Shown one piece after another: positions 5,741-63,915 of a stretch of 64,000 nt of DNA. The DNA is from Chitinophagaceae bacterium (GTDB taxonomy: Bacteria > Bacteroidota > Bacteroidia > Chitinophagales > Chitinophagaceae), in NCBI GenBank assembly GCA_025363355.1, contig JANYEB010000037.1, positions 111,056 to 175,055 on the forward strand, given 5' to 3'. Within the stretch, counting starts at the first letter, position 1. Every line of letters begins with the position of its first letter. A program made the translations under genes and the position numbers. The notes under the pieces are model-generated. The model saw only the letters and a list, made by a program, of their open reading frames with translations, made no database searches and was not told the origin of the DNA.

Positions 5741-6006
5741 GAAAAATGATTTTGCGATGTCGCTACACAATATTGCGACATTGCAGAATGGTTATTGCTT
5801 ACGCCGAAACAATTTCTATACGTGCCAGAATGGTTCCTAAACGTGCCAGAATCATTCTGTGATGTGTAGGAATCATTTCTACAAGGGAAAAACAGTTGCT
5901 GCAAGTGCCAAAACAGTTGCTAGGGCTGTAGGAATGATTTCTACACGTGCAAGAATTGTTTTAGGATATCGCTACACAATGTAGCGATATCCTAAAATCG
6001 TTTTTC
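5741..6006. repeat. ~265-bp non-coding element bounded by imperfect terminal inverted repeats, copy 1
   Basis: The left end GAAAAATGATTTTGCGATGTCGCTACA matches the reverse complement of the right end, GAAAAACGATTTTAGGATATCGCTACA. There is a sub-terminal palindrome ATCGCTACACAATGTAGCGAT. The centre GTGATGTGTAGGAATCATTTCTACAAGGGAAAAACAGTT is shared with the copy at 24529-24793. The interior is made of ~21-nt degenerate units. Confidence 0.7.
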
Positions 6007-6046
6007 CCAAAGGTGGAATTCATAAGTGTTCGAAACCTTGTTTTTG

Positions 6047-24528: not shown

Positions 24529-24793
24529 GAAAAACGATTTTGCGATGTCGTTACACAATGTTGTGACGTCGCTACATTTTGAAGCGACATTGCAACATAA
24601 TTCTAGCACATCTCTCAAGTATTCCTGCATGTGTAGGGGTCATTTTGTGATGTGTAGGAATTGTTTCTATAAGGGAAAAACAGTTTCTACACATCACAAA
24701 ATAGTTTCCTGAGTTATAGGAATGGTTTCTGCATGTATAGGAGTTATAATATAACATCGCTACACAATGTAGCGACATTGTAAAACCGTTTTC
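24529..24793. repeat. ~265-bp non-coding element bounded by imperfect terminal inverted repeats, copy 2
   Basis: The left end is GAAAAACGATTTTGCGATGTCGTTACA and the right end reverse complement is GAAAACGGTTTTACAATGTCGCTACA. There is a sub-terminal palindrome ATCGCTACACAATGTAGCGAC. The centre GTGATGTGTAGGAATTGTTTCTATAAGGGAAAAACAGTT is nearly identical to copy 1. A perfect 15-bp inverted repeat (TTTTGTGATGTGTAG / CTACACATCACAAAA) brackets the centre. Confidence 0.7.
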
Positions 24794-24868
24794 CCCGTAG
24801 ACAGAAAGCGGCAAGAACATCATTTTATTGTTAAAAGTCAAACAGTTAAGCCAAAAATAGGTTTCTGC

Positions 24869-48600: not shown

Positions 48601-51600
48601 ACAACTGGTGGTGTTTGGTCAAGCAGTGATACTACAATTGCATCAATTAATGCTTCAACTGGTCTTGTAACTGGTAAAGTTGCAGGAACTGTAACGATTA
48701 CTTATACTGTAACAAATGCACAAGGTTGTATAGGAAGTTCTACAAAACAATTTACTGTTAATGCTTTGCCAATTGTTCCTGCAATTACAGGTAATACTAC
48801 AATTTGCGATAATACCACAACAGCTTTAAGCAACTCTTTAACTGGTGGAATTTGGAGTTCATCTTTAACATCAAAAGCAACAATTAATGCTTCAACTGGT
48901 TTAGTAACTGGTGTAGCTTCTGGCTCAACTAATATCACTTATTTATACACTGATAATAATGGTTGTTCAAATACTAATTCAACTGTTATAACAATCAATG
49001 CAAGCCCTACAGTTGCTGCAATTAGCGGTAATGCTGGTGTTTGTATTGGTAGTACAACAACATTTAGCGATGTTACTTTAAATGGTACTTGGACTTCAAG
49101 TAATACAAATGCTGCAACAATTAATAACAGTGGTTTAATTACAACTGTTGCTACTGGTTCTTCAACTATTAGTTATACAGTAATTAATGCAAGTACTTGT
49201 ACAACTTTTGTTACAAAATCAATTACAGTAAATGCTCTACCAAATGTTACAGCTAATGCAACTGCAACTACAGTTTGTTTTGGTACTCAAACAACTTTAA
49301 CAGGTGGCAATGCTTCTTCTTATACTTGGAATAATGGTGTGACAAATGGAACTGCTTTTGCACCTTCTGCAACAAACTCTTATACTGTAACAGGAACTGA
49401 TGGCAATGGTTGTGTTAAAACTGCAAACATTACTATCACTGTAAACTCATTGCCTATTGTTAGCATCAGTCCATCTGTTACTACTTTATGTAATGGATAT
49501 TCATCAACATTAACAGCATCTGGTGCTAGTACTTATGGTTGGACAATAGTTGGCTCTTCGCCATATATGGACCAAGTATCAAGTACTTCAACATTAAAAT
49601 TTGCTGCTGGTTTACATAAATTAAAAAGTTCATATAGTGGTTCTGCAATACGCATTAGACGTTCAAGCGATAATACTGAGGCTGATTTTGGATTTAGTGG
49701 TAATGATTTAGATGTTGCTGCAATTAGCACATTTATTGGTGGAGGAACAGCTTATGTAAAAACATTATACGACCAATCTGGCAATGGCAATCATTTATCA
49801 CAAACATCAAATGGTAATCAACCAACCTTAACTTTAAGTGGATTGAATGGCAAACCTGTAATTCACACAAATACTTCACAAAGTATATATAATATGACAA
49901 ACTTTACACCACCGTTTAGTGTAGTTTACGCAGCACGTCAAACTGGTGGTAGCCGTGGAAGATTGTTGTCTGGTACAAATAATAATTGGTTATTAGGATG
50001 GTGGGGTGGAAACAGAGCAATGGCTCATTTTGATGGTTGGATTACAAGCTCTTGCTGTAGTGCATCAGATAATAATATTTATGTTTATTCTGGAACAGGA
50101 ACAGGCTCTAGCTCTTTTGCTTATCAAAATAAAACATCAATCACTACAAACTCTACTGGTGGAACTACAGGACCAAATGGTATTTCTCTTAACAGAAATG
50201 AGGCTTCTGATGCAGACTTTACAGATGTTGTAGAATTCAATTCTGTATTATCAACTGCTGATAGAAATATTGTAGAAAATGGAATGGGTGCTTATTATGG
50301 CTTATCTGGTTTTTATAATACAACAGGAGCAAGCACTACAGTATCACCAAATACAACATCTAGCTTTACTGTTTATGGAACAGATGGAAATGGATGTATT
50401 GGTACTGCAACACAAGCTATAACTGTTAATCCGAAACCAAATGCTGGTGCAGATGTTAACTATTTATGTGGTAGTGCAACACAAACATTAACAGGTACTG
50501 CAAATACAGGAAACTGGACTGCATTAGGTACAAACCCAATAGGTGCTACATTAAGTGCTACAACATCGGGTGTTGCAACAGTATCATTTACAAATCTTGC
50601 TTCTGGTACTTTCAGTTTCATTTACACTTTACCAACAACTAATTGTAGCGATACAATGAGTATTACAGTTAGAGCTAAACCAAATGCAGGAGCTGACCAA
50701 GCTGTATGTATTTTAAATGTAGCGACTGGTGTTACTTTAACATCAAATGTTGCTGCAGTTTGGACTGCAAAATCTGGTAATGTAGGAACTTCAAATATTG
50801 TGTCTGCAATTAGTGCAAGTACACAAGTAAATAACTTTAGTGTTGTAGGAGATTATAATTATATAAATACAAATAATGGTTGCACAGATACTGTTAAAGT
50901 AACTGTTACACCAGCTGGTTCGATAGGTAATTATGTTTGGAAAGATCAAAATAATGATGGCTTACAAAACGAACCTACATCAAATGGTGTTAATGGAATA
51001 ACAGTTGATTTGTATAAAAAAGATGGAATGGGAGCATTTAATTTATATGCTACCACCACAACCGCTAATAGTGGAAGTGGTAACCCAGGATTTTACAACT
51101 TTGGTATTTGTGAAGATGGGGTTTATAAAATAAAAGTACCAACTGTAAATCCATTTACACAAACACATTTAACAACACAAGATGCAACTGCTGCTACCAA
51201 TGGCAATAGCGATGTAAATCCTGCTGATGGATTTAGCCCAGATGTTACGATTGATACACACGGAACTGGTGTTGCAAAAGATAACACCACAATAGATGCT
51301 GGTTACCAAATTTGTACTAAACCAATTGCTGGCATTGATTTCACATCTTGTGGTGGTCAGTTGGTAGCAATAACAGGCGTTTCTACAACACCTGCATTAC
51401 CTACAACAGATGGTAATTGGGCTGCTCTTTCAAGTAATCCAAGTGGTACTATCTTAAGTGCAACTAACTTAGGTGTTTCAACTATTCAATTTGATTCATT
51501 AGCATCTGGAGTTTATAGCTATATCTATTCTGTAACTGGTGGATGTGATGATACTCTAAATATTACAGTTGGCTATAAACCAGCAGCTGGAACTGATTTA

Positions 51601-54600
51601 TATGAAATTTGTGGTGGTTCTGTTATTCCTGTAACTGGCTTGCCAAGTGGTGGCACTTGGTCTCAAGCATATGCAAATATTTCTGGTGCAACTGTTGATG
51701 CAACTAATAATGGCGTTGCTAATATTAGTTTTGCAAATATTATTTCAGGAATATACACATTTGTTTATACAACTCCATTTGGGTGTACAGATACTATGAC
51801 TATCTCTACCAAACCAAAACCTAATGCAGGTAATGATGTATATATGGAGTGCGGTACACCAAAATTATTTGATTCAGTAAGAGCAACACCAACTGGTGGG
51901 ACTTGGGCTGCAATGTCTAGTAATCCTACAGGTGTAACACTTGGTTCTACTACTAATGGTAAAGCACAAATTAGTTTGCCAATAGCACCAGTTCAAGGAA
52001 CTTGGTCATTTATTTACACAGCACCAAATGGTTGTACAGATACAATGAGCTACACAATTGGAGTAACAGGCACCCCTGCACCAGCAATCAATTCTGGTAG
52101 CAACCCAATTTGTGGTAATAGTACTGTTCAAATTTGCCCTACTTTTTTTGGATGGAGCAATTATCAATGGTATAAAAATGGGGTTGCAGTATCTGGAATA
52201 AATGGTACACAATCTTGTATTACAATTGACTCTTCAAAAATTGGCAGTTATACTTTAGCAGGAACTAACGGTTCAGCTTGTTGGTCAAAACAATCAAGCC
52301 CAGTTGTAATTAGTTTAGCAGGAGCAGTAACTCCAACCATCACAATTCAAGGTGGTTTAACAACAGCTTGTAATAATGGAAGTGTTACTTTAATTAGTAG
52401 TTCAACACAAAACAATCAATGGAATAAAAATGGTGTTGCAATTAGTGGGGCAACATCTCAATATTATACAGCTTCAACAAGTGGTGTTTATACTGTAACT
52501 GCTATTAATTGTGGATACACAAGAACAAGTTCTGGAACTACAATAACTATTGTTGCTCCAATAAGTATTTCATCTATACAAGCAAGTTCAGGTTCTGTTT
52601 GCACAGGAAGCACATTAATATTAAGCAGTGCAACAACTGGTGGCGTATGGACATCTAGCAATCCTTCAAAAGCAACTGTCAATGCTGCTACTGGAATTGT
52701 TACTGGTTTGAATGCTGGTTCAACAATCATCACTTACACAGTAACAGTTAGTGGTTGCAGCAATGCAACAAGTTACGCGTTAAGTGTAGTAGATGGTTCT
52801 AACATTACAACACCGACTATCTCTGTACAAGGGTCAACAATATTATGTGGAACAGCAACTGTGCAACTATGTACAGGGACTTTTGGCTGGAGTAATTATC
52901 AATGGTATAAAAATGGAGTAGCTGTAACAACTGGTACAGGAACTTGTATTACTGTAGACACTTCTAAATTAGGAAGCTACACACTAGCAGCTACTACAGG
53001 TAGTGGTTGCTGGTCTCCTTTATCAAATGCTGTAACTATTAGCAGTTCTACAGTATTGCCATCAACTCCAACTATTAGTGCAACTGGCTCAACAACTGTA
53101 TGTAATAATGGAACTGTTGTTCTAAGCAGTAATGCTACAACAAATAATCAATGGAAAAAAGATGATGTAACAATTAGTGGAGCAACATCTCAATCTTATA
53201 CTGCTTCAACTAGTGGTGTTTATACAGTATCTGTTAGCAATTGTGCAGGAAGTTCAGTTAGTGTTGGAATCACAGTAACAATTGTTCCTACAATTACACT
53301 AGGTTCAATTCAATCAGCTACTAGCTCTGTTTGTAAAAATGCAACAGTAACTTTAACCAACTCAACCACTGGTGGCTTATGGGCTTCAAACAATAATTCA
53401 AAGGCAACTGTTAATGCAACAACAGGAGCTGTTACTGGTGTTGATACAGGTAGTGTAATTATTAGTTACACAGTAATAGTTAGTGGATGTAGCAAATCAG
53501 TTTCTACTACCTTAACGGTTGTAGATGGCTCTAATATGATTGCACCAGTTATTGCAGCACAAGGACAAACAAGTTTATGCGGAACAAGTACAGTTCAGAT
53601 TTGCCCAACAACATTTGGTTTTAGTAATTATCAATGGTATAAAGATGGCATAGCTGTAACAAGTAATGGAGCTAGTGCTTGTATTACTATAGATACATCT
53701 AAATTGGGTAGCTATACTTTAGCTGCAACAAATGGTAGTGGTTGTTGGTCAACAGTATCTGATGCAGTTGTTGTTAGTGCTTCATCTATACCAGTAGTTC
53801 CAACAATTTCAACATCTGGTTCTGGTACTATATGTAATGGAGGAACAATTACTTTAACTAGCAGCTCATCAACTGGAAATCAATGGAAGAAAGATGGAGT
53901 TGCTATCAGTGGTGCTACCTCTCAATTTTACACAGCATCTGCAAGTGGTGTCTATACTGTAACTGTTACAAATTGTGGTAGTGCAATCAGTACAGGGACA
54001 TCAATTACTGTTGTTTCATATATAACTATTAATTCAATACAATCAATTACTGGAACTGTTTGTAAAAACGCCACATCAACTTTAATTAATACAACAACTG
54101 GTGGAGTTTGGTCATCAAGTAACAATTCAATTGCTACTGTTAATTCATCAACAGGTGTTTTAACAGGTGTTGATACAGGTACAGTAACTATAACTTATAC
54201 AGTAACTATAAGTGGTTGTAGTAATTCAGTTCAAGCAACATTCACAATAGTAGATGGTTCAAATATTGTAGCACCAACTATTATTGCACAAAGTTCTTCA
54301 GTAATATGCTCAAATGGTAATGTAACTATTTGCCCAACAGTATTTGGCTGGAGTAATTATCAATGGTATAAAAATGGAATTGCATTAACAAACAATGGAG
54401 CTGGAGCTTGTATTACTGTTGATACATCTAAATTGGGTAGCTATACTTTAGCTGCAACAACAGGAACCTGCTGGTCATCTCAGTCGAATGCAATAACTGT
54501 TTCAACTTTACTAGCACCTGCAACACCAACAATTAGTGCTGGCGGCTCTACAACATTATGCAATGGCGGTAATGTAGTGTTAACAAGTAATGCACCAAGT

Positions 54601-56028
54601 GGCAATCAATGGAATAAAGATGGAGTAGTTATTAGTGGTGCAACATCTGCGACTTATATTATTACTACCGCTGGAGTTTATACAGCAACAGTAACTAATT
54701 GTGGTGGTAGTTCTACAAGTGCAGGTACAACAGTATCAATAGCAGCACCCATAACAGTTGCAGCAATTGGGTCAAGTAGTAGCAATGTATGTATGGGTAG
54801 CACTGTAACATTAACTAATGCAACTGTCGGAGGTGTTTGGTCTTCAAGCAATACATCAGTTGCAACTATTAATTCATCTGGAATTGTTACAACAGTTGGT
54901 GTAGGAACAGCAGTGATTAGTTACACAGTAACAGCAGGCAGTTGTTCAAATGCAACGACTTATACTCTTACAGTTCAGTCAGGTTCTGTAGCTACACCAA
55001 CCTTAGATATAAGAGGTTCAGTAAATATCTGTGGTAGTGGAAGCTTGCAAATGTGTCCATTAGTTTGGGGTTATAGCAATTATCAATGGTATAAAGATGG
55101 TGTTGCATATTCAACAGCCTCTTGTATTACAGTAAACACAGCAGGTTCATATACATTAACAGGAACCAATGGTTCAGGTTGCTGGTCTGCACAGTCTGCA
55201 CCAGCTCTCGTAACCATAAATCCTATTCCTACAATAGTAGCTACAGCAGGCCCAACAGCAGTATGTGCAGGATTTTCAATAGCATTAGTTAATAGCAGCA
55301 CAATACCAAGTGGTGGAACAGGAGTTTGGTCAACAGGATATAATAGTCAAGTATCTGTAGGTGCAACAACTGGCGTAGTATCTGCATCAAATGCAGGTAA
55401 TGTAGTAATTAAATACACAGTTATATCTGCAGTAGGTTGCACAAACTATATAAACTATAACGTAACAATAAATGCAATACCAAGTGTACCAAGTATTACT
55501 TATGCACCAGGAACTATTAATCCACAAGCAGGAGCACCAACAGGAAGTTTTTGTGCAAACAGAACCTTTACAGTAGTGGGCACACCAAGCGGGGGCGTAT
55601 GGAGCAAAACGGGTGTTATTAATGTTACAACCCCAGGTGGTGTAGTTACTACAGGCAATATAGTTGGAGCTGGAACATTAAAATATACTTATACCGATGC
55701 AAATGGCTGTAGTAATAGCAGAACAATGGTTGGCAATGTATACGTTTGTGCTGCAAGAGGAATAAATACAGTTGACGGTCAACTGTCGACTGTCAACAGT
55801 TTTACAATGTATCCTAACCCCGCTAAATCTCAAGTAAGTATTAACGTTGAGACCTTAGTTGGAACTAGTAATATTATTGTTACAGACCTTTATGGAAAAG
55901 TGGTTAAATCTCAAACATTAAGTATGGGAACTAACACCATTAATATTAGTAAACTATCAGCTGGAATGTACTTTGTTAGCATTATTACTAGCGAGGGTAA
56001 ACAAACTAAAAAATTAATAATAGAATAA
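45661..56028 (+). CDS. Giant (3455 aa) multidomain T9SS-secreted surface protein
   Basis: Domain layout by coordinate:
- Signal peptide.
- 6-7 Kelch-like blades, 45745-47045 (W.W..GD...N..GVYGTKG...N.PGAR...GNLWLFGG...LNDLWKY).
- 4 x 49-aa Cys repeats, 47089-47676.
- Gly-rich domain, 47690-48460.
- Big_2-like Ig domains (GGVWSSS...A.IN..TGLVTG), 48550-49500.
- ConA/LamG-like region, 49540-50310.
- SdrD-B-like domain (NYVWKDQNNDGLQNE), 50915-51310.
- Five ~243-aa tandem modules, 52060-55215.
- T9SS C-terminal domain (MYPNPAKSQVSINV...GMYFVSIITSEGKQTKKLIIE), 55801-56025. Confidence 0.85.
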   Translation: MKKTLFGFLTIICLLFSSVSNAQINSSSQWTWMKGDNTINSFGVYGTKAVSAATNKPSGRYAGTTWTDTLGNLWLFGGVGFDVNGNYGQLNDLWKYDVGTNQWTWLLGDDVNNQSGIYGTKGIAASTNKPGARNASFGWVDPSGNLWLLGGNGYDEGGSLGNMNDLWQYNISSGEWIWVSGDNAVNQNGVYGTKGVADINNIPGARYGSASFTDASGNLCFFGGFGNDGSGNSGQLNDLWKYNTATGEWTWLSGDNTINHYGVYGTKGVASSTNQPGSREAVNGWKDPSGNFWIFTGYGYAESGSTQVMNDLWKYNTITNQWSWESGDNTTLQYGVYGTKGIANVANKPGARYTSATWADASGNLWLFGGYGYVTSGGAGDLNDLWKYNTNTGEWTWVSGDNTINQTGIYGTQGVADVNNKPGGRDNSMGWKDTNGNLWLFGGTAYDANGSVGQINDLWKLGIACNISSSSNTQTACNSLVWNGTTYTSSGTYTWTGTNAAGCDSTATLNLTINNSSISSTTTSACDSLIWNGTTYTTSGTYTWGGTNAAGCDSTAALNLIINNSTTSSTSVTSCDSLRWNGTKYTASGTYTYSTTNAVGCDSTATLNLTINNSTISVSTVTVCDSLIWNGTIYRNSGTYTAHFTNAVGCDSTATLGLIVNYKPTVAPIVGLTNIEILAIGGGGGAGGPDGAIGAGGGAGGAVYGAYTLSTTGSSIYTVGVGGAGGYGQGCAGNAAGGTAGVNGGAAGGNAGTGGCSGGGGGSGGWSGLYQGSNYIVVAGGGAGGGGSNEGNANDVTTPGGGNQSAAFGTSMTGQNGTAYSGDGGGGGAGGGGFYGGAGQSNLTQTGFVASQAWGGANYANPTGRNSFATYIGNSGATSSTGTGGQGTTSTISNSSNFNYSNTFGKGGNAQGNGGTSTTANGNNGVVIIRYPGSAVATGGAVTQSGGYTLHTFTATGSNTFTANSGNSVCAGSTTTLNCVTTGGVWSSSDTTIASINASTGLVTGKVAGTVTITYTVTNAQGCIGSSTKQFTVNALPIVPAITGNTTICDNTTTALSNSLTGGIWSSSLTSKATINASTGLVTGVASGSTNITYLYTDNNGCSNTNSTVITINASPTVAAISGNAGVCIGSTTTFSDVTLNGTWTSSNTNAATINNSGLITTVATGSSTISYTVINASTCTTFVTKSITVNALPNVTANATATTVCFGTQTTLTGGNASSYTWNNGVTNGTAFAPSATNSYTVTGTDGNGCVKTANITITVNSLPIVSISPSVTTLCNGYSSTLTASGASTYGWTIVGSSPYMDQVSSTSTLKFAAGLHKLKSSYSGSAIRIRRSSDNTEADFGFSGNDLDVAAISTFIGGGTAYVKTLYDQSGNGNHLSQTSNGNQPTLTLSGLNGKPVIHTNTSQSIYNMTNFTPPFSVVYAARQTGGSRGRLLSGTNNNWLLGWWGGNRAMAHFDGWITSSCCSASDNNIYVYSGTGTGSSSFAYQNKTSITTNSTGGTTGPNGISLNRNEASDADFTDVVEFNSVLSTADRNIVENGMGAYYGLSGFYNTTGASTTVSPNTTSSFTVYGTDGNGCIGTATQAITVNPKPNAGADVNYLCGSATQTLTGTANTGNWTALGTNPIGATLSATTSGVATVSFTNLASGTFSFIYTLPTTNCSDTMSITVRAKPNAGADQAVCILNVATGVTLTSNVAAVWTAKSGNVGTSNIVSAISASTQVNNFSVVGDYNYINTNNGCTDTVKVTVTPAGSIGNYVWKDQNNDGLQNEPTSNGVNGITVDLYKKDGMGAFNLYATTTTANSGSGNPGFYNFGICEDGVYKIKVPTVNPFTQTHLTTQDATAATNGNSDVNPADGFSPDVTIDTHGTGVAKDNTTIDAGYQICTKPIAGIDFTSCGGQLVAITGVSTTPALPTTDGNWAALSSNPSGTILSATNLGVSTIQFDSLASGVYSYIYSVTGGCDDTLNITVGYKPAAGTDLYEICGGSVIPVTGLPSGGTWSQAYANISGATVDATNNGVANISFANIISGIYTFVYTTPFGCTDTMTISTKPKPNAGNDVYMECGTPKLFDSVRATPTGGTWAAMSSNPTGVTLGSTTNGKAQISLPIAPVQGTWSFIYTAPNGCTDTMSYTIGVTGTPAPAINSGSNPICGNSTVQICPTFFGWSNYQWYKNGVAVSGINGTQSCITIDSSKIGSYTLAGTNGSACWSKQSSPVVISLAGAVTPTITIQGGLTTACNNGSVTLISSSTQNNQWNKNGVAISGATSQYYTASTSGVYTVTAINCGYTRTSSGTTITIVAPISISSIQASSGSVCTGSTLILSSATTGGVWTSSNPSKATVNAATGIVTGLNAGSTIITYTVTVSGCSNATSYALSVVDGSNITTPTISVQGSTILCGTATVQLCTGTFGWSNYQWYKNGVAVTTGTGTCITVDTSKLGSYTLAATTGSGCWSPLSNAVTISSSTVLPSTPTISATGSTTVCNNGTVVLSSNATTNNQWKKDDVTISGATSQSYTASTSGVYTVSVSNCAGSSVSVGITVTIVPTITLGSIQSATSSVCKNATVTLTNSTTGGLWASNNNSKATVNATTGAVTGVDTGSVIISYTVIVSGCSKSVSTTLTVVDGSNMIAPVIAAQGQTSLCGTSTVQICPTTFGFSNYQWYKDGIAVTSNGASACITIDTSKLGSYTLAATNGSGCWSTVSDAVVVSASSIPVVPTISTSGSGTICNGGTITLTSSSSTGNQWKKDGVAISGATSQFYTASASGVYTVTVTNCGSAISTGTSITVVSYITINSIQSITGTVCKNATSTLINTTTGGVWSSSNNSIATVNSSTGVLTGVDTGTVTITYTVTISGCSNSVQATFTIVDGSNIVAPTIIAQSSSVICSNGNVTICPTVFGWSNYQWYKNGIALTNNGAGACITVDTSKLGSYTLAATTGTCWSSQSNAITVSTLLAPATPTISAGGSTTLCNGGNVVLTSNAPSGNQWNKDGVVISGATSATYIITTAGVYTATVTNCGGSSTSAGTTVSIAAPITVAAIGSSSSNVCMGSTVTLTNATVGGVWSSSNTSVATINSSGIVTTVGVGTAVISYTVTAGSCSNATTYTLTVQSGSVATPTLDIRGSVNICGSGSLQMCPLVWGYSNYQWYKDGVAYSTASCITVNTAGSYTLTGTNGSGCWSAQSAPALVTINPIPTIVATAGPTAVCAGFSIALVNSSTIPSGGTGVWSTGYNSQVSVGATTGVVSASNAGNVVIKYTVISAVGCTNYINYNVTINAIPSVPSITYAPGTINPQAGAPTGSFCANRTFTVVGTPSGGVWSKTGVINVTTPGGVVTTGNIVGAGTLKYTYTDANGCSNSRTMVGNVYVCAARGINTVDGQLSTVNSFTMYPNPAKSQVSINVETLVGTSNIIVTDLYGKVVKSQTLSMGTNTINISKLSAGMYFVSIITSEGKQTKKLIIE
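47089..47676 (+). repeat. Four exactly phased 147-nt (49-aa) tandem repeats inside the giant CDS
   Basis: The unit-initial TGT codons are at 47089, 47236, 47383 and 47530. The unit is C(N/D)SL.WNGT.YT.SGTYT....NA.GCDSTATLNLTINNS. Confidence 0.85.
52060..55215 (+). repeat. Five tandem ~730-nt (241-245 aa) modules inside the giant CDS (four complete, one partial)
   Basis: The marker AATTATCAATGGTAT (SNYQWYK) recurs at 52159, 52894, 53626, 54355 and 55078. The spacings are 735, 732, 729 and 723 nt, all multiples of 3. Confidence 0.85.
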
Positions 56029-56054
56029 GCTAAAAGTTTTTTAGTATTCCAACA

Positions 56055-56094
56055 AAAGGCTGCATCTATACTATGATGCAGCCTTTCTTGTTTT
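56055..56094 (+). terminator. Rho-independent terminator after the giant gene
   Basis: Stem AAAGGCTGCATC/GATGCAGCCTTT followed by CTTGTTTT. Confidence 0.7.
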
Positions 56095-56215
56095 ATAGAA
56101 ATATGGGAGTGAATATAAATTTATCAGGTTATATAATTTCGATGTAAGAATAAAATCATAGCAAAAATTATTAAAAACACTACAAAAAATTTTTCCACAT
56201 ACAGCCTCAAACCCC

Positions 56216-56223
56216 TACTTTTG
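56216..56223 (+). promoter_or_regulatory. Candidate -7 box (TAnnTTTG) giving rpoB its own promoter
   Basis: TACTTTTG lies about 100 nt upstream of the rpoB ATG. The leader contains the hairpin GCAGATG...CATCTGC. Confidence 0.3.
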
Positions 56224-56321
56224 CGATCCTTAATTTTTTTGGAGAGGTACCGCAGATGAGTTTATGGCCATTAAAGCATCTGCAAATTGCACATTTTAGC
56301 TAAAAAAGGATTACACTATTT

Positions 56322-59300
56322 ATGTCTACAACAACATTAACCACTAGGGTAAATTTTGGTAAAACAAAACACCTAGCAGCTGCTCCTGACTTATTAGATA
56401 TCCAATTGGAATCTTTCAGAGAGTTTTTTCAATTAGAAACTACGCCAGATAAGCGTAATAATGAAGGTTTGTTTAAAGTGTTTAAGGAAAATTTCCCTAT
56501 CACTGATACACGTAACATCTTCGTTTTAGAGTTTCTTGACTATTTTATTGATCCGCCACGTTACTCAATTGTTGAGTGTATGGAGCGTGGATTAACTTAT
56601 GCTGTGCCTTTAAAAGCTAAGCTACGTCTTAGTTGTAATGATGAAGAGCACGTGGATTTCCAAACAATTGTACAAGATGTGTTTTTAGGAAATATTCCTT
56701 ATATGACACCTCGTGGTACTTTCGTTGTTAATGGAGCCGAGCGTGTAATTGTTTCTCAATTGCATCGTTCTCCAGGTGTATTCTTTGGTCAATCAACTCA
56801 CCCTAACGGAACAAAAATTTATTCTGCTCGTGTAATTCCTTTTAAAGGAGCATGGATGGAGTTTGCTACAGACATTAACAATGTAATGTATGCTTACATT
56901 GATAGAAAAAAGAAATTCCCTGTAACTACTTTATTACGTTCTATTGGCTTTGAAACTGATAAAGATATTTTGGAGTTGTTTGGAATGGCTGATGAAATTG
57001 CAGTTGATACCAAAACTTTACAACCGCATGTTGGCAGAAAACTAGCTGCTCGTGTTTTAAGAACTTGGGTTGAAGATTTCGTTGATGAAGATACTGGTGA
57101 AGTTGTGAGCATTGAGCGTAACGAAATTGTAATGGAGCGTGATACAATTTTAGATGAAGATGGTATTGATACCATTGTTGAAATGGGTATCGAAAGCATC
57201 TTTATTCAAAAAGAAGAACTAGGTGGAGACTATGCAATCATCTACAATACATTAAACAAAGATACTTCAAACAGTGAGTTAGAAGCGGTTCAGCATATTT
57301 ATCGCCAATTGCGTGGTGCTGATGCTCCAGATAACGAAACTGCACGTGGTATTATCGATAAATTATTCTTTAGTGATAAGCGTTATGATTTAGGAGAAGT
57401 TGGTCGTTACAAAATCAACAGAAAACTAGAACACGCTATCCCTATCGAGAAAAAAGTTTTAACAAAACAAGATATCATTGAAATCATCAAATACTTAGTT
57501 CGTTTAACGAATGCTAAGGCTGAGATTGATGATATTGATCACTTATCAAACCGTCGTGTACGTACAGTTGGCGAACAATTGTATGCACAATTTGGTGTTG
57601 GTTTAGCTCGTATGGCTCGTACTATTCGTGAAAGAATGAACGTTAGAGACAATGAGGTTTTCACTCCAGTTGACTTGATTAATGCTCGTACACTTTCTTC
57701 TGTTATTAACTCATTCTTTGGTACATCTCAGTTATCTCAATTCTTAGATCAAACTAATCCGCTTTCTGAAATTACGCACAAACGTCGTATTTCAGCATTA
57801 GGACCCGGAGGTTTAAGTAGAGAAAGAGCTGGATTTGAGGTTCGTGACGTACACTATTCTCACTATGGTCGTTTGTGTACTATTGAAACTCCAGAGGGAC
57901 CAAACATTGGTTTGATTTCAACGCTTTGCGTTCACGCTGCTATTAATGATATGGGATTCATTGAAACTCCTTATCATAAAGTAACGAATGGTAGAGTAAA
58001 TATGCACGAACAGCAGTATTTAAGTGCTGAAGAAGAAGAAGAAAAGAAAATTGCACAAAGTAATACGCCAATTGATGATAAAGGAAACTTCCTTGAAGAG
58101 AAAATTGTAAGTAGAGATACTGGTGATTTTCCAATTTTAGATAAAGCAGATGTTCAGTTTATGGACGTTGCACCTAACCAAATTGTTGGTTTATCTGCTT
58201 CATTAATTCCTTTCTTGGAGCATGATGATGCTAACCGTGCTTTGATGGGATCGAATATGCAACGTCAGGCTGTGCCATTGATTAGAATGGATGCACCAAT
58301 TGTAGGTACTGGATTGGAAGCAAAAGCAGCATTAGATGCTCGTATTCAAATTCACGCAGATGGAACAGGAGTGGTAGAATTTGTTGATTCAAGAGAAATT
58401 CATATCAGATACGATAGAAATGATGACGATAGATTAATTTCTTTCCACGATGATTTGATTGTTTATAAATTGGCTAAGTTCATTAAAACCAACCAATCAA
58501 CTTGTATTAACTTACGTCCTGCTGTTAAAAAAGGACAACACGTTAAAAAAGGTGATTTCTTAACCGAAGGTTATGCTACTCAAAATGGTGAACTAGCTTT
58601 AGGTAGAAACTTGGTGGTTGCATTTATGCCTTGGAAAGGTTACAACTTTGAGGATGCGATTGTAATTAATGAAAAAGTTGTTAGAGAAGATTTATTTACT
58701 TCTTTACACATTGATGAATATGAATTAGAAGTTAGAGACACTAAACTTGGAGAAGAAGAATTAACTTCTGACATTCCTAACGTTAGTGAAGAAGCAACTA
58801 AAGATCTTGACGAACACGGTATTATTAGAATTGGTGCTACTATTAAAGAAGGTGATATTTTAATTGGAAAAATTACTCCAAAAGGAGAAAGTGATCCAAC
58901 ACCAGAAGAAAAATTATTGCGTGCCATTTTTGGAGACAAAGCTGGTGATGCAAAAGATGCTTCTTTAAAAGCTCCAAACGGAACTGAAGGTACTGTTATT
59001 GATAAAAAATTATTCCAAAGAGCGAAGAAAGATAAAAACTCAAAAGTTCGTGAAAAAGCTGCTTTAGAGAAAGTTGAAAAAGCTCACCATATTGTTGTTG
59101 CTGATTTAAAAGAGCAATTGGTTGGAAAATTGACGATTCTTTTAAGAGAAAAAACTTCTGCTGGCGTTACTAATAGCTATGGAGAAACTTTAATTGGTAA
59201 AGGCGTTAAATTCAACTCTAAAAATCTTCAAACATTAGATGTTCAAGGTATTAATCCTTTGGGCTGGACTGGTGAAGAAAAAGTTGACCAAGCTATCAAT

Positions 59301-60125
59301 ACTTTATTACACAACTACACTATTAAGTATAACGAGGAGTTAGGTAGATTTAAAAGAGAGAAATTCAATATTTCAATTGGTGATGAATTACCAGCTGGTG
59401 TGTTGAAACTTGCTAAAGTTTACTTGGCTGTTAAACGTAAGTTGAAAGTGGGTGATAAAATGGCGGGTCGTCACGGAAATAAAGGTATCGTTGCTAAAAT
59501 TGTACGTGCAGAGGATATGCCATTTATGGAAGATGGAACACCAGTTGATATTGTGTTGAATCCATTGGGTGTACCTAGTCGTATGAACTTAGGACAGATT
59601 TATGAAACCATTTTAGGTTGGACTGGTTTGAAATTAGGTAGAAAATATGCAACGCCAATTTTTGATGGTGCAAGCACTACTGAAATTGAAGACTTGTGTA
59701 AAGAAGCTGGAATTCCTTTAAATGGTCACACACATCTTTATGATGGAGAGACTGGAGAAAGATTCCACCAAAAAGCAACTGTGGGCGTTATTTATGTGAT
59801 TAAACTACACCATATGGTGGATGATAAAATGCACGCTCGTAGCATTGGACCATACAGTTTGATTACACAACAACCGCTTGGTGGTAAGGCTCAATTTGGA
59901 GGTCAAAGATTTGGTGAGATGGAGGTTTGGGCACTGGAGGCTTATGGTGCAGCAAACATCTTACAAGAATTATTGACACTTAAATCTGATGATATTATTG
60001 GTCGTGCAAAAACTTATGAAGCTATTGTAAAAGGCGATAATATCCCTAAAGCTGGTGTGCCAGAATCATTTAATGTGTTGGTTCACGAGCTAAGAGGTTT
60101 AGGTTTAGATTTAACTTTTGAATAA
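56322..60125 (+). CDS. rpoB: DNA-directed RNA polymerase subunit beta
   Basis: Full length, 1267 aa. Motifs: [59 protein letters not shown] and [15 protein letters not shown]. Confidence 0.97.
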
Positions 60126-60146
60126 TCTATTCTAAAGAATATAAAT

Positions 60147-60179
60147 AAAAAGCTGCTTCAATTGAAGCAGCTTTTTTTA
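60147..60179 (+). terminator. Rho-independent terminator immediately after rpoB
   Basis: Stem AGCTGCTTCA/TGAAGCAGCT followed by T7. It begins 22 nt after the stop codon. Confidence 0.75.
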
Positions 60180-60180
60180 T

Positions 60181-60472
60181 GGATAGCAGTACCATTAAAC
60201 AGCATTCGATTTCCATTGAACAGACTGCCATTTCTACAGAACAGGATTTGATTTCTATTGTGCAAAAATCGATTTCCATCTGTTAGAAATTAATTTCCAC
60301 TAAACAGGATTCGATTTCTAATGAATAGACTGTCATTTCTACAGAACAGGATTCGATTTTTATAAAACAGCTATGTCATTGTATAAAATGGGATGCTAGT
60401 TCCATCAGTTGGGATGCTTGTTTTATGAAATGGGATACTTATTCCACCAATTGGGATGGCTGTTCCATCAGT
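60181..60472. repeat. Tandem array of about 14 degenerate 21-bp units
   Basis: Example units: CAGCATTCGATTTCCATTGAA, CAGACTGCCATTTCTACAGAA, CAGGATTTGATTTCTATTGTG, then TGGGATGCTAGTTCCATCAGT, TGGGATGCTTGTTTTATGAAA, TGGGATACTTATTCCACCAAT and TGGGATGGCTGTTCCATCAGT. Unit lengths are 20-22 nt. Units 2-3 recur as units 7-8, 105 bp later. Confidence 0.75.
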
Positions 60473-60492
60473 TTTCTGAACTGTTTTTATTA

Positions 60493-61239
60493 TTAGGGAC
60501 GAGTATATTTAATTGATGATACTTGTTTGTACTCGGCACTTTTTGATTTAAAAACTGATAAGACGTATTTTTTTGATTTTAAAACTACATCTACCAAGCC
60601 TGTTGTTTCAGCATATAATAAAACATCTCTTGCTTGTAAAGCATTTTTGTAAGTTGGTTCTGCATCTGTTACATCTTTATTTGCCTTTTTTAGTTTTGCA
60701 AGATAGGTTTGTAATGCTGCGACTTTTAGTTCGGCTTCGTTGGGTTTATATAGGCTTTGTGCAGCTACCCAATTGATTAAATCCTCGAAATGTTGTACTA
60801 GATTGTCATAGCTCTGTTGACTTGCAGAAATTGTGGTTGGCACTTCTGGGTTATCTGTTATTTCGGTTGTTTTTGATTTTTTAGGTTTTAGTGGTGTGGC
60901 TCTTGTGCCTTGTATTTTTCGGTTATATTCTCTTGCTCCTTCTATGATTGTATCATCTAAATCGAGTGAAGCAAATGAGTTAATTACTTGTGTGGAAAGC
61001 GTGTCTAATGGTTGAAAAATAATTTGTCGTTGTTTGGTTAATTGTCCAAAAATGCCTTCTTGTTTGCTTGCTTCAACTGTTGCATCATCACAAAGTTTGC
61101 AATGTGCTTGCATATTTGTGAGTTTGATTAAATCGTTGGTGGGTGCATACTTGCTGCCATAAGCTGCATTGAATGCAATTTGTGATTTGTAATTGGCTAC
61201 ATTGATAGTATGGCCAGTTTCATTTACTTGTTTTGCCAT
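60493..61239 (-). CDS. Hypothetical protein (248 aa), two helical halves joined by a Lys/Thr/Pro-rich linker
   Basis: Clean ORF with an ATG start. No motif that I can assign to a family. Confidence 0.5.
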   Translation of the reverse strand: MAKQVNETGHTINVANYKSQIAFNAAYGSKYAPTNDLIKLTNMQAHCKLCDDATVEASKQEGIFGQLTKQRQIIFQPLDTLSTQVINSFASLDLDDTIIEGAREYNRKIQGTRATPLKPKKSKTTEITDNPEVPTTISASQQSYDNLVQHFEDLINWVAAQSLYKPNEAELKVAALQTYLAKLKKANKDVTDAEPTYKNALQARDVLLYAETTGLVDVVLKSKKYVLSVFKSKSAEYKQVSSIKYTRP

Positions 61240-61433
61240 TGTATAAAGTGTTGGTGAATAGCTAAATTATGGAATTATTTAAATTAACAAATAAATTTAC
61301 ATTAAAATTAAGAAAATATTAGGATTTTGCAAGTTGCTGACTGTTAGCAAAAAGTTGTTGGTAGGCTTTGCAGTATCAATCAATGTTTGAATTGTATTTT
61401 TTATATATTTGGTGATGAGATATTTTACTAAAT

Positions 61434-61632
61434 GCTTATATAGTTTTCTACACTAACCATTTAACAGAATGAAATTTTACACGATAAGAAACCTGCAATC
61501 ATTGTTGGTGAGGACACCAACAATGGCGAAAAAAACATTAATGTTTCATCATTATCAAACGGGTTGTATTTTATTAAAATGCAAAAAGCAGATGGAAGTT
61601 TTAAGATTAGCAAACTTTTAATTCAGCATTAA
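61434..61632 (+). pseudogene. Decayed remnant of a T9SS C-terminal sorting domain
   Basis: One frame reads ...QNEILHDKKPAIIVGEDTNNGEKNINVSSLSNGLYFIKMQKADGSFKISKLLIQH*, a typical CTD ending. An upstream frameshifted piece, YIVFYTNHLTE, looks like a degraded ..YPNP.. start. There is no upstream gene body. It ends 1 nt before the next ATG. Confidence 0.4.
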
Positions 61633-61633
61633 T

Positions 61634-63103
61634 ATGTTTAATTTAATTAAAAAGCAAGGTAAATTAATTGCCTTGCTTTTATCCTTTATACTTACAGAGA
61701 ATGATACCATAGCACAAGTAAACCTTGTATCCAACCCTTCTTTTGAACAATATACCAATTGCCCACAAGGATACTTACACGAACATCCGGACTTTTGGTA
61801 TCAGCCTGATAAAGGGGGGGGAGGGTATTTTAATGCTTGTAGACCAAATATAGGTAGCGTGCCATACACAGGTCTTGGTTTTCAATATGCCCACTCTGGA
61901 TTTGCAATGGTTAGTATGGCATATTATAACAATAATGCCAATAACTATTTTCAGATAAAGCTGTCAGATAGTTTAAGAGTAAATAAAAATTATTATATAG
62001 AATTTTATGCAGTAAATACTAAGGCATATAAACTTGGTTGCAATAACATATCTCTATTGCTTAGTAAGCAGGCAGTTTATGCAGATACCATCAATAATAT
62101 TAAAATAATACCTGCCAATCCGCAAATTTATAATTATGGAAACCCTATTATTACAGACACTACTAATTGGGTAAAAGTAAGTGGCATTTATAAGGCACAG
62201 GGTGGGGAGCAATATATTACTTTAGGTAATTTTAAACCAACAAGTCAAACCAATTATATCATTAGTAAACCCGGTGGTAGCTTGTTCACTGCGGGTTATT
62301 TTATAGACGATGTTTCAGTAATACCCCTTGATAGTATGTGTTTAAGGGCAGATGCAGGTAAAGACACAGCCATAACATTGGGTGATAGTGTCTTTATTGG
62401 TAGTTTAACCAATGGTATAGATAGTATTAAATGGTTAAACGGTAACACTGTTATTGATAGTTTGAGACCTGGTTTTTGGGTGCACCCTAATGTTACCACA
62501 AGCTATATTTTGCAGCAAGTGGTTAATGGTTGTTTTAGTGCAGATACTGTGGTGGTAACTGTGGGTACGGTGCCATTGAAAATTATGAATTATGAATTAA
62601 GAATGATGAATGAGAAGCAGATTGAGAGTAGATGGGTTACTGCTAATGAAGTTAATGTGAGCCATTTTAATATTCAGCGTTCAGTAAATGGCAAAGACTT
62701 TATAACTATTGGTAAAATATCAGCCAATAATAAAAGTTTGAATGAGTACCAATTTACCGATGACCGTTTACCGTTTACCGTTGATGGCAGTTTGTACTAT
62801 AGAATTGAGAGTGTGGATTTCGATGGCAGAAAACAATATAGTGTGATAAGGAATGTGGAATTAAGAATTAGGAATAATGGAATTAGCATTTATCCAAATC
62901 CTGCAAAAGAACAGGTTACTATTACTTGTAAGGATGCTAAAGAGTTGATAATAGTTGATTACTCAGGGAAAACAATTTATCAGTCAACAGTCGACCGTCG
63001 ACCGTTGACTGTTAATCTCAAACAATTATCTAAAGGTGTTTATGTTGTTAAAGCAATTTTAAATACTGAAGAAATTAAAACAGAAAAACTAGTTGTTGAG
63101 TAA
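61634..63103 (+). CDS. T9SS-secreted protein (489 aa) with a C-terminal sorting domain
   Basis: Signal peptide and the C-terminal ISIYPNPAKEQVTITC...LSKGVYVVKAILNTEEIKTEKLVVE. The preceding W.TANEVNVSHFNIQRS..G..F module is common in Bacteroidota CTD proteins. Confidence 0.75.
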   Translation: MFNLIKKQGKLIALLLSFILTENDTIAQVNLVSNPSFEQYTNCPQGYLHEHPDFWYQPDKGGGGYFNACRPNIGSVPYTGLGFQYAHSGFAMVSMAYYNNNANNYFQIKLSDSLRVNKNYYIEFYAVNTKAYKLGCNNISLLLSKQAVYADTINNIKIIPANPQIYNYGNPIITDTTNWVKVSGIYKAQGGEQYITLGNFKPTSQTNYIISKPGGSLFTAGYFIDDVSVIPLDSMCLRADAGKDTAITLGDSVFIGSLTNGIDSIKWLNGNTVIDSLRPGFWVHPNVTTSYILQQVVNGCFSADTVVVTVGTVPLKIMNYELRMMNEKQIESRWVTANEVNVSHFNIQRSVNGKDFITIGKISANNKSLNEYQFTDDRLPFTVDGSLYYRIESVDFDGRKQYSVIRNVELRIRNNGISIYPNPAKEQVTITCKDAKELIIVDYSGKTIYQSTVDRRPLTVNLKQLSKGVYVVKAILNTEEIKTEKLVVE

Positions 63104-63112
63104 GTGACTGCA

Positions 63113-63147
63113 AAGAGTTGCCAACCTTTTAAAAGTTGGCAACTCTT
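63113..63147. terminator. Bidirectional hairpin between convergent genes
   Basis: Stem AAGAGTTGCCAAC/GTTGGCAACTCTT with an A/T-rich loop. Confidence 0.6.
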
Positions 63148-63165
63148 ATAAAACGGTTAATTCAA

Positions 63166-63915
63166 TTACAACTCCATAAACTTCTTCTCTACAAAATTCC
63201 AATCAACCACATTCCAGAAATTGGTAATATAATCTGCACGTTTGTTTTGATAGCGTAGGTAATAGGCGTGTTCCCAAACATCTAAACACAATAACGGCTT
63301 GCCTTTTAACTCAACAATATTCATTAATGGATTGTCTTGATTGGCAGTTGAACCAATGGCTAGTTTGCCATCTTTTGTTTTAATTAGCCAAGCCCAACCA
63401 CTTCCAAAACGTGTTTTTGCTGCATCGGCAAACTGGGTTTTAAATGCATCTAAAGAACCAAAATCTCCTATGATATTATCTGCTAAAGAACCTGTGGGTT
63501 TATTATCTGCTGCTGTGTTTGGCGACATACATTGCCAAAACATTTCGTGGTTATAATGTCCACCAGCATTGTTTCTCATTTTTGGTGTGTACTTAGAAAT
63601 TTTGTGTAGTATATCTTCTAAAGATTTGTTTTTGCTGCCAACTTCTGCAATGTATGCTTCGTTTAAATTTTTGCAATAGGTGGCTGCGTGTTTGGTATAA
63701 TGTATTTCCATTGTTTGGGCATCAATGGCTTTTTGCAAAGCATCGAATTTGTAAAGCAATGGTTGTTGCATAAACCTGCCATTAGCCAAGGGTGCTATTT
63801 TTTTATTGATGCTATTTGCAAGAGATGGAATGATGGTTGTGCTTAACCCAACAGCTAAAGCTGCTTTGCCAGAATTGAAGAGAAAATCTCTGCGACTAGA
63901 TGTTGACTTTTTCAT
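63166..63915 (-). CDS. Fe/Mn superoxide dismutase with a twin-arginine (Tat) signal peptide
   Basis: N-terminal SSRRDFLFNSGKAALAVGL. SOD core: HYTKHAATY, GGHYNHEMFW and DVWEHAYYL. Confidence 0.9.
   Translation of the reverse strand: MKKSTSSRRDFLFNSGKAALAVGLSTTIIPSLANSINKKIAPLANGRFMQQPLLYKFDALQKAIDAQTMEIHYTKHAATYCKNLNEAYIAEVGSKNKSLEDILHKISKYTPKMRNNAGGHYNHEMFWQCMSPNTAADNKPTGSLADNIIGDFGSLDAFKTQFADAAKTRFGSGWAWLIKTKDGKLAIGSTANQDNPLMNIVELKGKPLLCLDVWEHAYYLRYQNKRADYITNFWNVVDWNFVEKKFMEL

Follow-up and report, generated by a model that had tools for sequence, protein, structure and literature searches.

Phased direct repeats that lie beside the gene for the protein that binds them are found in sopB-sopC of the F plasmid and in iteron arrays next to rep genes, such as P1 incA and F incC. 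Type III toxin-antitoxin loci such as ToxIN run from promoter through repeats and terminator to the toxin gene, with repeat units that are about 34 to 36 nt long and pseudoknot-like. An all-helical fold is not a known feature of ToxN-type toxins. The ToxI repeats and the protein sponge CsrB provide loose analogues for RNAs composed of repeats.

The closest published parallel to the locus described below is BrickBuilt of Porphyromonas gingivalis, a 23-nt imperfect minisatellite with a leader and a tail that have inverted-repeat ends (Klein et al. 2015, PMC4596501). BrickBuilt is always intergenic, often adjoins genes with a type IX secretion (T9SS) sorting domain and is equipped with IS5-like inverted repeats; P. 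gingivalis and P. gulae are the only species in which it was found, and promoters were proposed for it (PMC4596501).

The DNA analyzed here (the window, 64,000 nt from a Chitinophagaceae bacterium) contains a tandem array in the intergenic region 60181-60472, between the stop codons of rpoB (56322-60125, plus strand; TIGR02013 at 1810 bits) and of a convergent open reading frame (ORF) of 248 aa. Tandem Repeats Finder, autocorrelation and the unit layout together resolved 13 full units of 21 bp and a 14th of 16 nt (60181..60469, minus strand), in line with a sequence-only reading of the window that had described about 14 such units between convergent gene ends. Tandem Repeats Finder reported period 21 at 60192-60359 (8.0 copies), 60302-60370 and 60389-60470 (3.9 copies). 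Identity at lag 21 across 60181-60472 was 60.5%, far above the 26.9% seen in 500 dinucleotide-preserving shuffles of the same interval (z = 12.9). Lags 42, 63, 84, 105 and 126 were also significant, with lag 105 standing out (z = 9.3), and none of the 500 shuffles exceeded z = 4.9 at any lag.

The sense strand of the array, as defined by its family (see below), is the minus strand. In this register the full units occupy 60197-60469, and the 14th stops after 16 nt, where the A-tract of the rpoB terminator starts. The two unit types noted in the sequence-only reading were both recovered in the minus-strand layout. One, GATGGAAC.AGCATCCCA, is represented by the four gene-proximal units (units 1-4, 60386..60469), as supported by a phased consensus of 61 related arrays and by alignment to the related loci L004, L005 and L007, and also by the last unit. 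The eight intervening units read (T/A)GAAATCGAATCCTGTT or GTAGAAATGGCAGTCTGTTC; units 6-13 (60197..60364), of types TAGAAATCGAATCCTGTT and GTAGAAATGGCAGTCTGTTC, include a duplication of five units. The re-duplication at a distance of 105 bp that had been pointed out earlier is thus borne out by the lag-105 signal and by 88% identity over 67 nt between 60192-60258 and 60297-60363, at an offset of 105. The last unit, AATGGTACTGCTATCC (60181..60196), is truncated: from here on the window departs from related loci, and it has no copy of the 3' domain usually found at this place.

Immediately beyond the array lies a bidirectional intrinsic terminator (60147..60176) with a 13-bp stem, an A-tract on one side and a T-tract on the other. 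On the plus strand this terminator closes rpoB, and on the minus strand it would stop transcription of the 248-aa gene and the array. Read-through from rpoB into the array, which had been raised as something to look for, is unlikely because this strong terminator separates the two. On the other side, the spacer from the stop codon of the 248-aa ORF to unit 1 (60469..60492) contains a weak 5-bp hairpin (CAGTT-cagaa-AACTG), the final base of which doubles as the first base of unit 1, and a terminator scan of this spacer found none. Since no terminator lies between gene and array, transcription of the window array as a 3' UTR is to be expected. The array goes with this convergent gene and not with rpoB, a pairing that the sequence-only reading had missed, because such arrays are found 3' of the homologues of the 248-aa gene, on the same strand, in two phyla.

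The partner gene (60493..61239, minus strand), characterized by its ORF, homology and an AlphaFold2 model, encodes a basic protein that is predicted to be all-helical. The model (pLDDT 88) has eight helices arranged in two halves with a disordered linker between them, and the pI is 8.9 (family median, 9.3). No signal peptide was evident at the N terminus. The protein matched nothing in NCBIfam or PADLOC; Pfam yielded DUF5106 alone, below threshold (21 bits; cut-off, 28), and PHROGs a single weak match. Searches against PDB sequence profiles returned weak, nonsignificant matches to generic helical proteins, none with an E value under 0.29, and a Foldseek comparison of the model with the PDB likewise returned generic helical proteins, none under E = 0.03. 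The family comprises 3045 clusters at 50% identity. Almost all of the best 150 of these cluster representatives are stand-alone proteins of 235 to 280 aa, and no domain fusions were seen among them.

A phage or plasmid origin of the gene with its array was rejected: tblastn of the protein against 72,556 plasmids and 50,697 phages gave no match, and 2.9 million viral contigs contained one. The module is chromosomal and often multi-copy. The protein was identical in three sequencing runs, each with an identical array.

A survey of one genome per GTDB species revealed more than 545 loci encoding a relative of the 248-aa protein, in Chitinophagales, Flavobacteriales, Cytophagales, Sphingobacteriales, Bacteroidales and Ignavibacteria, with several copies in many genomes. 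For the analysis of arrays, 80 loci were kept from this survey and combined with the earlier loci, and arrays were counted in 83 non-redundant loci. Of the 83, 61 have an array that is 200 bp or longer, lies on the same strand and starts at most 400 bp downstream of the stop codon. These 61 arrays mostly have 11 to 17 units, and their period is exactly 21 throughout. Shorter arrays (110 to 175 bp) were found at nine further loci, and at seven loci, all from a single protein subfamily, the array is reversed and placed upstream of the gene. The strongest downstream autocorrelation fell at lag 21 in nearly all of the 80 loci and the earlier ones, compared with random lags of low excess in the control flanks upstream of the gene. 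Among loci with sufficient flank, an array was sought and not found only at L069, a paralog that has the gene and no array, and at L079. Judged from sequence, the gene-array pairing recurs in hundreds of Bacteroidota species, the arrays themselves having been examined in the 83 loci.

When phased, the 61 arrays share a loose consensus, TTTATAAAACTCGCATCCGCA, in which conservation is confined to an A-rich block (A.AAA[A/T]CT) and a GCATCC block; the GATGGAAC.AGCATCCCA units of the window are the ones closest to it. Within each unit, a conserved core comes first and a variable part second. The spacing is fixed at 21 bp, or restored by compensating pairs (19+23, 20+22), despite the divergence of the linkers. 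Stop codon and array are separated by 23 bp in the window and by a median of 45 bp in the family, and in at least 21 of 60 loci this gap contains a strong terminator-like hairpin, which would put the array outside the main mRNA. Clustering of the neighboring genes of 84 loci gave no conserved family; the only recurring feature was a T9SS sorting domain on the upstream neighbor (16 to 18 of 56 loci).

Close relatives of the window locus, L004, L005 and L007 (83 to 91% protein identity), likewise carry the array 3' of the gene and on the gene's strand, which answers the earlier concern that it might be absent from all close relatives. The L004 contig ends inside the array. Beyond the array, L005 and L007 run into sequence other than rpoB; in L005 this includes the start of an ORF that looks integrase-like by eye alone. 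Array identity to the window was 83% for L007, 88% for L004 and 74% for L005, compared with 75%, 71% and 62%, respectively, at four-fold sites of the adjacent gene, and the upstream intergenic region was about 50% identical in each comparison. Orthologous arrays are therefore more conserved than the synonymous sites of the gene beside them. The 14 units of the window align one-to-one with those of L007, with zero internal indels, and direct reading of the L007 units indicates that unit types, unit order and the five-unit duplication are common to both; because these features look shared, the layout of the array would predate the split of the two species. Unit number, which had been proposed for comparison among strains, does vary among paralogs and more distant copies, with 12 units in L005 and 14 in the window, and 9 and 13 in the pair L022 and L028.

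At its far end, the last unit of L007 continues (...GCTATCCCATTTCAGACAAAACCC) up to a hairpin, at the point where the window instead runs into the terminator. This hairpin occurs 3' of the array and on the same strand in about 38 loci, and has two stems, outer and inner, with a conserved internal loop (ACAUU / AAAGA) between them and a variable loop at the tip. Over 49 sequences, 94% of cells were paired, compared with 60% in shuffles and at most 45% with slid partners. There were 227 compensatory cells, and G-U accounted for only 2 of 763 cells, a pattern that suggests a constraint acting on the DNA itself or on both strands. Further hairpin copies occur elsewhere in these loci without an array, and no orphan arrays were found in front of them. 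Because the hairpin also occurs alone, its Watson-Crick covariation says little about the array. The mutual polarity of array and hairpin is kept even in the subfamily with upstream, reversed arrays.

Similarity among paralogs and between genera begins 0 to 78 bp before the ATG and stops about 80 to 400 bp past the array. As these edges enclose ORF, array and hairpin, the three behave as a single unit of 1.2 to 1.45 kb. The hairpin model (R1) found no match in the window; since the window has no copy of the hairpin, its module breaks off precisely with the last unit, at the start of the rpoB terminator. The copy in the window is thus orthologously conserved, but its 3' end has been lost and its array directly adjoins that terminator. 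Taken together, we consider it very probable that the array is the cis part of a conserved two-part module whose other part is a basic, all-helical protein of about 250 aa, and that the window copy of this module is 3'-truncated.

How the module works is a matter on which we can be less firm. Phased protein-binding sites, one of the roles suggested in the sequence-only reading, are still the leading explanation, with a binder that is predicted; we hold it tentatively. The units would be iteron-like, double-stranded DNA (dsDNA) binding sites, probably for the adjacent protein. As a candidate site, each unit would comprise a conserved core of 8 to 10 bp and a variable linker, and the centre-to-centre distance of 21 bp, two helical turns, would place bound protein on one face of the helix, where the aligned molecules would build a cooperative nucleoprotein complex. 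The most plausible binder would be the product of the adjacent gene, and the ORF-array-hairpin module (about 1.2 to 1.45 kb) would duplicate and relocate as one. We prefer dsDNA binding because of the lock on 21 bp, the core-plus-variable structure of the units and the terminator that frequently precedes the array, and also because the hairpin behaves in a DNA-like manner, the protein is basic, the layout resembles sopB-sopC and the array RNA has no convincing fold. Against it, the protein has no recognizable DNA-binding domain or fold match, the window array should share a transcript with its gene for want of a terminator in between, and at least one paralog (L069) has the gene alone. The excess of C over G on the sense strand and the fixed polarity of array and hairpin fit a role as RNA equally well.

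Such a role is a possible, somewhat less likely explanation. The array, as part of the 3' UTR or as a separate transcript, would present 11 to 17 A-rich, C-rich 21-nt sites in a largely unstructured RNA. This RNA may act by binding or titrating a protein, perhaps the product of the adjacent gene, or may be cut into unit-length RNAs. An RNA role is consistent with the array-to-hairpin polarity, which does not change even where the array lies upstream and reversed, with the excess of C over G in 52 of 61 arrays, and with the position of the window array between a stop codon and a terminator able to act on the minus strand. Type III toxin-antitoxin loci, too, have a terminator between gene and repeats. 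However, the order found here (gene, terminator, repeats) is the reverse of the order in those loci, and the repeat RNA would therefore be scarcer than the mRNA of the protein; searches with the protein gave no toxin or Abi family, and its predicted fold is all-helical. Binding to single-stranded RNA does not need exact spacing of 21 nt, and the neighboring hairpin avoids G-U. Nor did the array show a stable or conserved fold: z-scores were just -2.3 and -2.1 with diffuse ensembles, so the evidence for a stable array RNA fold is weak, and the structured RNA tail suggested earlier finds no support. Rfam gave no match in the window at gathering thresholds and just the unrelated Flavo-1 in twelve complete relatives, and a relaxed scan of the L070 module turned up nothing credible.

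More speculatively, the dsDNA reading might be extended to protein, array and hairpin as a previously unrecognized, self-contained DNA module of Bacteroidota and Ignavibacteriota, in which the array would serve as a loading platform for a new family of DNA-binding proteins and the attC-like hairpin as the site of movement or duplication of the module and the cassettes beside it. We regard this extension as unlikely. If it were true, the module would represent a novel means of gene-cassette exchange or mobility, with no relation to the integrons, transposons and partition systems now known.

The array could also be a BrickBuilt-like minisatellite, selfish or the product of mutation: functionless, carried or left behind by a small mobile element, driven by slippage and moving together with the 248-aa gene. 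For this, beyond the precedent as described for BrickBuilt (PMC4596501), speak the unit counts that differ between relatives, the T9SS sorting domains on upstream neighbors, and two separate elements of about 265 bp in the window that combine inverted, hairpin-bearing ends with a 21-bp core. These elements (5741..6008 and 24529..24796, both on the plus strand) contain about seven 21-bp units (lag-21 z = 7.5 and 8.6, respectively) and align with a mean column identity of 84%. A metagenome scan for the hairpin of their inverted ends gave six unrelated matches, with no periodicity.

The sequence-only reading had held that the array and these elements share a core and form one family, and this stands in part. 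The core as it was written (GGAWTNNATTTCTA) has two exact matches, each inside the array. A relaxed form, AGGAWT-N1-2-RTTTCTR, which was tuned post hoc on these data, occurs six times in the window, twice in each of the three loci (at 5868 and 5930 in the first element and at 24656 and 24718 in the second) and nowhere else, against 0.07 expected. A position weight matrix of the unit, in contrast, gave matches outside the array at chance level and picked out neither element, and a link by this route was rejected. The shared period of 21 bp and the post hoc motif make kinship plausible, though the link is weak; the elements are possibly orphan relatives of the array, resembling a miniature transposable element.

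The array in the window has no inverted ends of its own, which weighs against a functionless minisatellite. So do its conservation beyond that of synonymous sites, its collinear and indel-free alignment between species, and the persistence of consensus, position and strand relative to the gene across Bacteroidota and Ignavibacteria. Promoter boxes are not enriched in the arrays, unlike the promoter activity proposed for BrickBuilt (PMC4596501). We judge a minisatellite of this kind improbable.

Intrinsically curved or insulating DNA, bent by A-tracts that recur every two helical turns or acting as a transcription barrier or a site for nucleoid proteins with no dedicated binder, would account for the single A-rich core per unit (ATAAAAC, GGAAAT or AGAAAT) at exact 21-bp spacing and for the position at a gene end, often after a terminator. 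It would not be expected to conserve positions outside the A-tract such as GCATCC, and a strict tie to one protein family with fixed polarity is unexpected for generic bent DNA. This makes it very unlikely.

Decayed or frameshifted coding sequence, in which a 7-residue repeat (DGTSIPF / NGNRILF) would be the remnant of a protein extension or of a repeat protein, is suggested by the equivalence of 21 bp to seven codons and by one minus-strand frame with two stops in the window, one in L007 and none in L005, where a gene of 125 to 130 aa has been called. Yet an open frame exists in just 24 of the 61 arrays, with both strands represented, and in 37 there is none; in 20 arrays every frame contains two or more stops. 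No frame stays open in the same phase across the family. In the window array, several frames are open to nearly the same extent, as expected because the period is a multiple of three. On these family-wide frames, both a coding heptad repeat and a frameshifted extension of the 248-aa ORF were rejected, and we see next to no chance of a coding origin.

As the sequence-only reading had held, the array is not a promoter, since no Bacteroidetes -7 box occurs in the window array and the related arrays are not enriched in them (19 observed, 23 expected). It is also, as stated earlier, not CRISPR-like: the units abut, and their variable parts of about 11 nt are conserved between species and not turned over.

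Comparison with described systems places the array outside iteron origins, partition loci, type III toxin-antitoxin loci, CRISPR arrays and integron attC sites. With sopB-sopC and iterons it shares a position directly 3' of a gene, spacing by whole helical turns and a copy number of about 9 to 14. Iterons are repeats of about 17 to 22 bp phased at two turns, and the period of 21 with 14 units here, and in the 61 related arrays, agrees with this. Pfam, NCBIfam, the AlphaFold2 model and PDB folds, however, revealed no winged-helix initiator of the Rep_3 type, and residence on plasmids or phages was not found in the 72,556 plasmids and 50,697 phages searched. As in partition loci, the array follows right after the gene of its putative binder. 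Here, though, neither an NTPase of the ParA, ParM or TubZ type nor a domain of the Rep_3 or ParB kind is present: a partner NTPase appeared neither among the neighbor families of the 84 loci nor in the C-terminal 110 residues of the upstream neighbors (the part scanned), which belong to diverse families. The 248-aa protein is, moreover, all-helical with no match to a known fold, and the module is chromosomal.

The type III loci (ToxIN, CptIN and TenpIN) resemble the module in pairing a protein gene with short direct repeats on the same strand and a terminator in between. They differ in that here the gene comes first, followed by the terminator (at least 21 of 60 loci) and then by the repeats, and in that the units are 21 nt long and show no convincing pseudoknot-like fold; PADLOC and Pfam gave no match to a ToxN, CptN, TenpN or AbiF toxin. 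The hairpin of the relatives, which the window copy does not include, is reminiscent of attC in its two stems, unpaired internal loop and variable top loop, in its Watson-Crick-only covariation and in the placement of copies after genes in one orientation. Unlike attC, it has no RYYYAAC / GTTRRRY core sites, and the bases that it conserves are those of the internal loop (ACAUU / AAAGA). A tyrosine recombinase lies close by in just 3 of 84 loci (4 if the integrase-like ORF start in L005 is counted), which sets the module apart from integrons; a constant integrase partner was rejected on this count.

A search of the literature for such a gene-array module turned up only BrickBuilt, and papers outside the searched literature may exist. 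The array is real and conserved, and the widespread module to which it belongs seems not to have been described before. This module ties a protein family of about 3000 clusters (50% identity), which has no curated family membership or fold match, to a very regular non-coding array in two phyla, and so offers a concrete protein-nucleic acid pairing in organisms with sparsely charted non-coding elements. It would also account for spurious "hypothetical protein" calls over such arrays. If the hairpin and repeated boundary elements mark cassette junctions, they could reveal a new route of gene mobility beside T9SS cargo genes.

The array and BrickBuilt (PMC4596501) have several features in common: both are spacerless, imperfect tandem units of about two helical turns in intergenic DNA of Bacteroidota, with conserved and variable unit halves, gain or loss of whole units, and T9SS neighbors. 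The 265-bp elements add inverted ends around a periodic core. The array itself extends between the stop codon of the 248-aa ORF and the rpoB terminator, with no leader or tail, and inverted ends are found only on those separate elements. Its period is 21, promoter boxes are absent, and whereas BrickBuilt is linked to no particular protein gene, the array here is tied to one protein family across two phyla. BrickBuilt-like minisatellites could gain a functional context from this comparison.

Within 45661-63915 of the window, rpoB (56322-60125) stands as an isolated gene: upstream, in the usual place of rplL, lies the gene for a 3455-aa type IX secretion system (T9SS) cargo protein, and on its 3' side come the array of 21-bp tandem units, the 248-aa gene, a T9SS protein and superoxide dismutase, with rpoC not among the genes downstream of it in this interval. 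When the window was compared with relatives, the break point fell exactly where the array ends and the rpoB terminator starts. The 3455-aa T9SS protein is itself internally repetitive: its long tandem repeats have periods of 219, 147 and ~730 bp (45781-47643 and 52111-55188).

At 16 to 18 of 56 loci encoding the family protein (the 248-aa protein or its homologues), the family gene's upstream neighbour carried a T9SS C-terminal sorting domain, a frequency expected to far exceed the genomic background. The same domain was found on the divergent 489-aa neighbour of the 248-aa gene (window 61634-63103).

Array and gene are not always arranged alike. One protein subfamily (related loci L025, L030, L044, L058, L061, L084 and L090) has the array and hairpin upstream of the gene and reversed, with a conserved region of ~290 bp, including a TTCCGCC...GGCGGAA hairpin, in between. 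L030 additionally has a Flavo-1 RNA (RF01705; 6126-6199; 44.4 bits, above the gathering score) ~380 bp downstream of its family gene. L069 (4986-5737), an 89%-identical paralog (over the gene) of L056 in the same genome, has no array, and similarity between the two ends ~11-14 bp past the stop codon. The 88-130-aa "hypothetical proteins" that metagenome gene callers place over the array (L005, 1608-1985; L006, 1593-1985; L007, 1131-1397) are probably spurious calls, produced by a repeat with a period divisible by three.

Cassette-like layouts were seen both at the module (family gene, array and hairpin) and downstream of it. Downstream of the module, a repeated element of ~210 bp containing TATTGGC...GCCAATA hairpins lies 5' of each of several unrelated same-strand genes (L070, 6187-6409, 7496-7716, 8762-8979 and 9460-9683; also L063, L023, L036 and L046), among them HEAT-repeat, transglutaminase-like and GNAT acetyltransferase genes, and together these elements and genes look like a gene-cassette array. 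At L064, two hairpins of the R1 model (963-1030 and 2425-2494), each preceded by a common CCGAAAGA(G)ATTC motif, enclose one module consisting of gene, terminator and 14-unit array, as expected for a cassette with direct-repeat boundaries.

R1 hairpins (L023, 6030-6096; L070, 6046-6112; L007, 1671-1730; and ~35 further loci) occur repeatedly 3' of genes in a single orientation, with or without an array. The family showed very strong covariation and a near absence of G-U pairs, and is built of a pair of stems with a variable loop and an internal loop (ACAUU / AAAGA) that is conserved. This layout is similar to that of integron attC sites, although the attC core sites are missing from the R1 hairpin.
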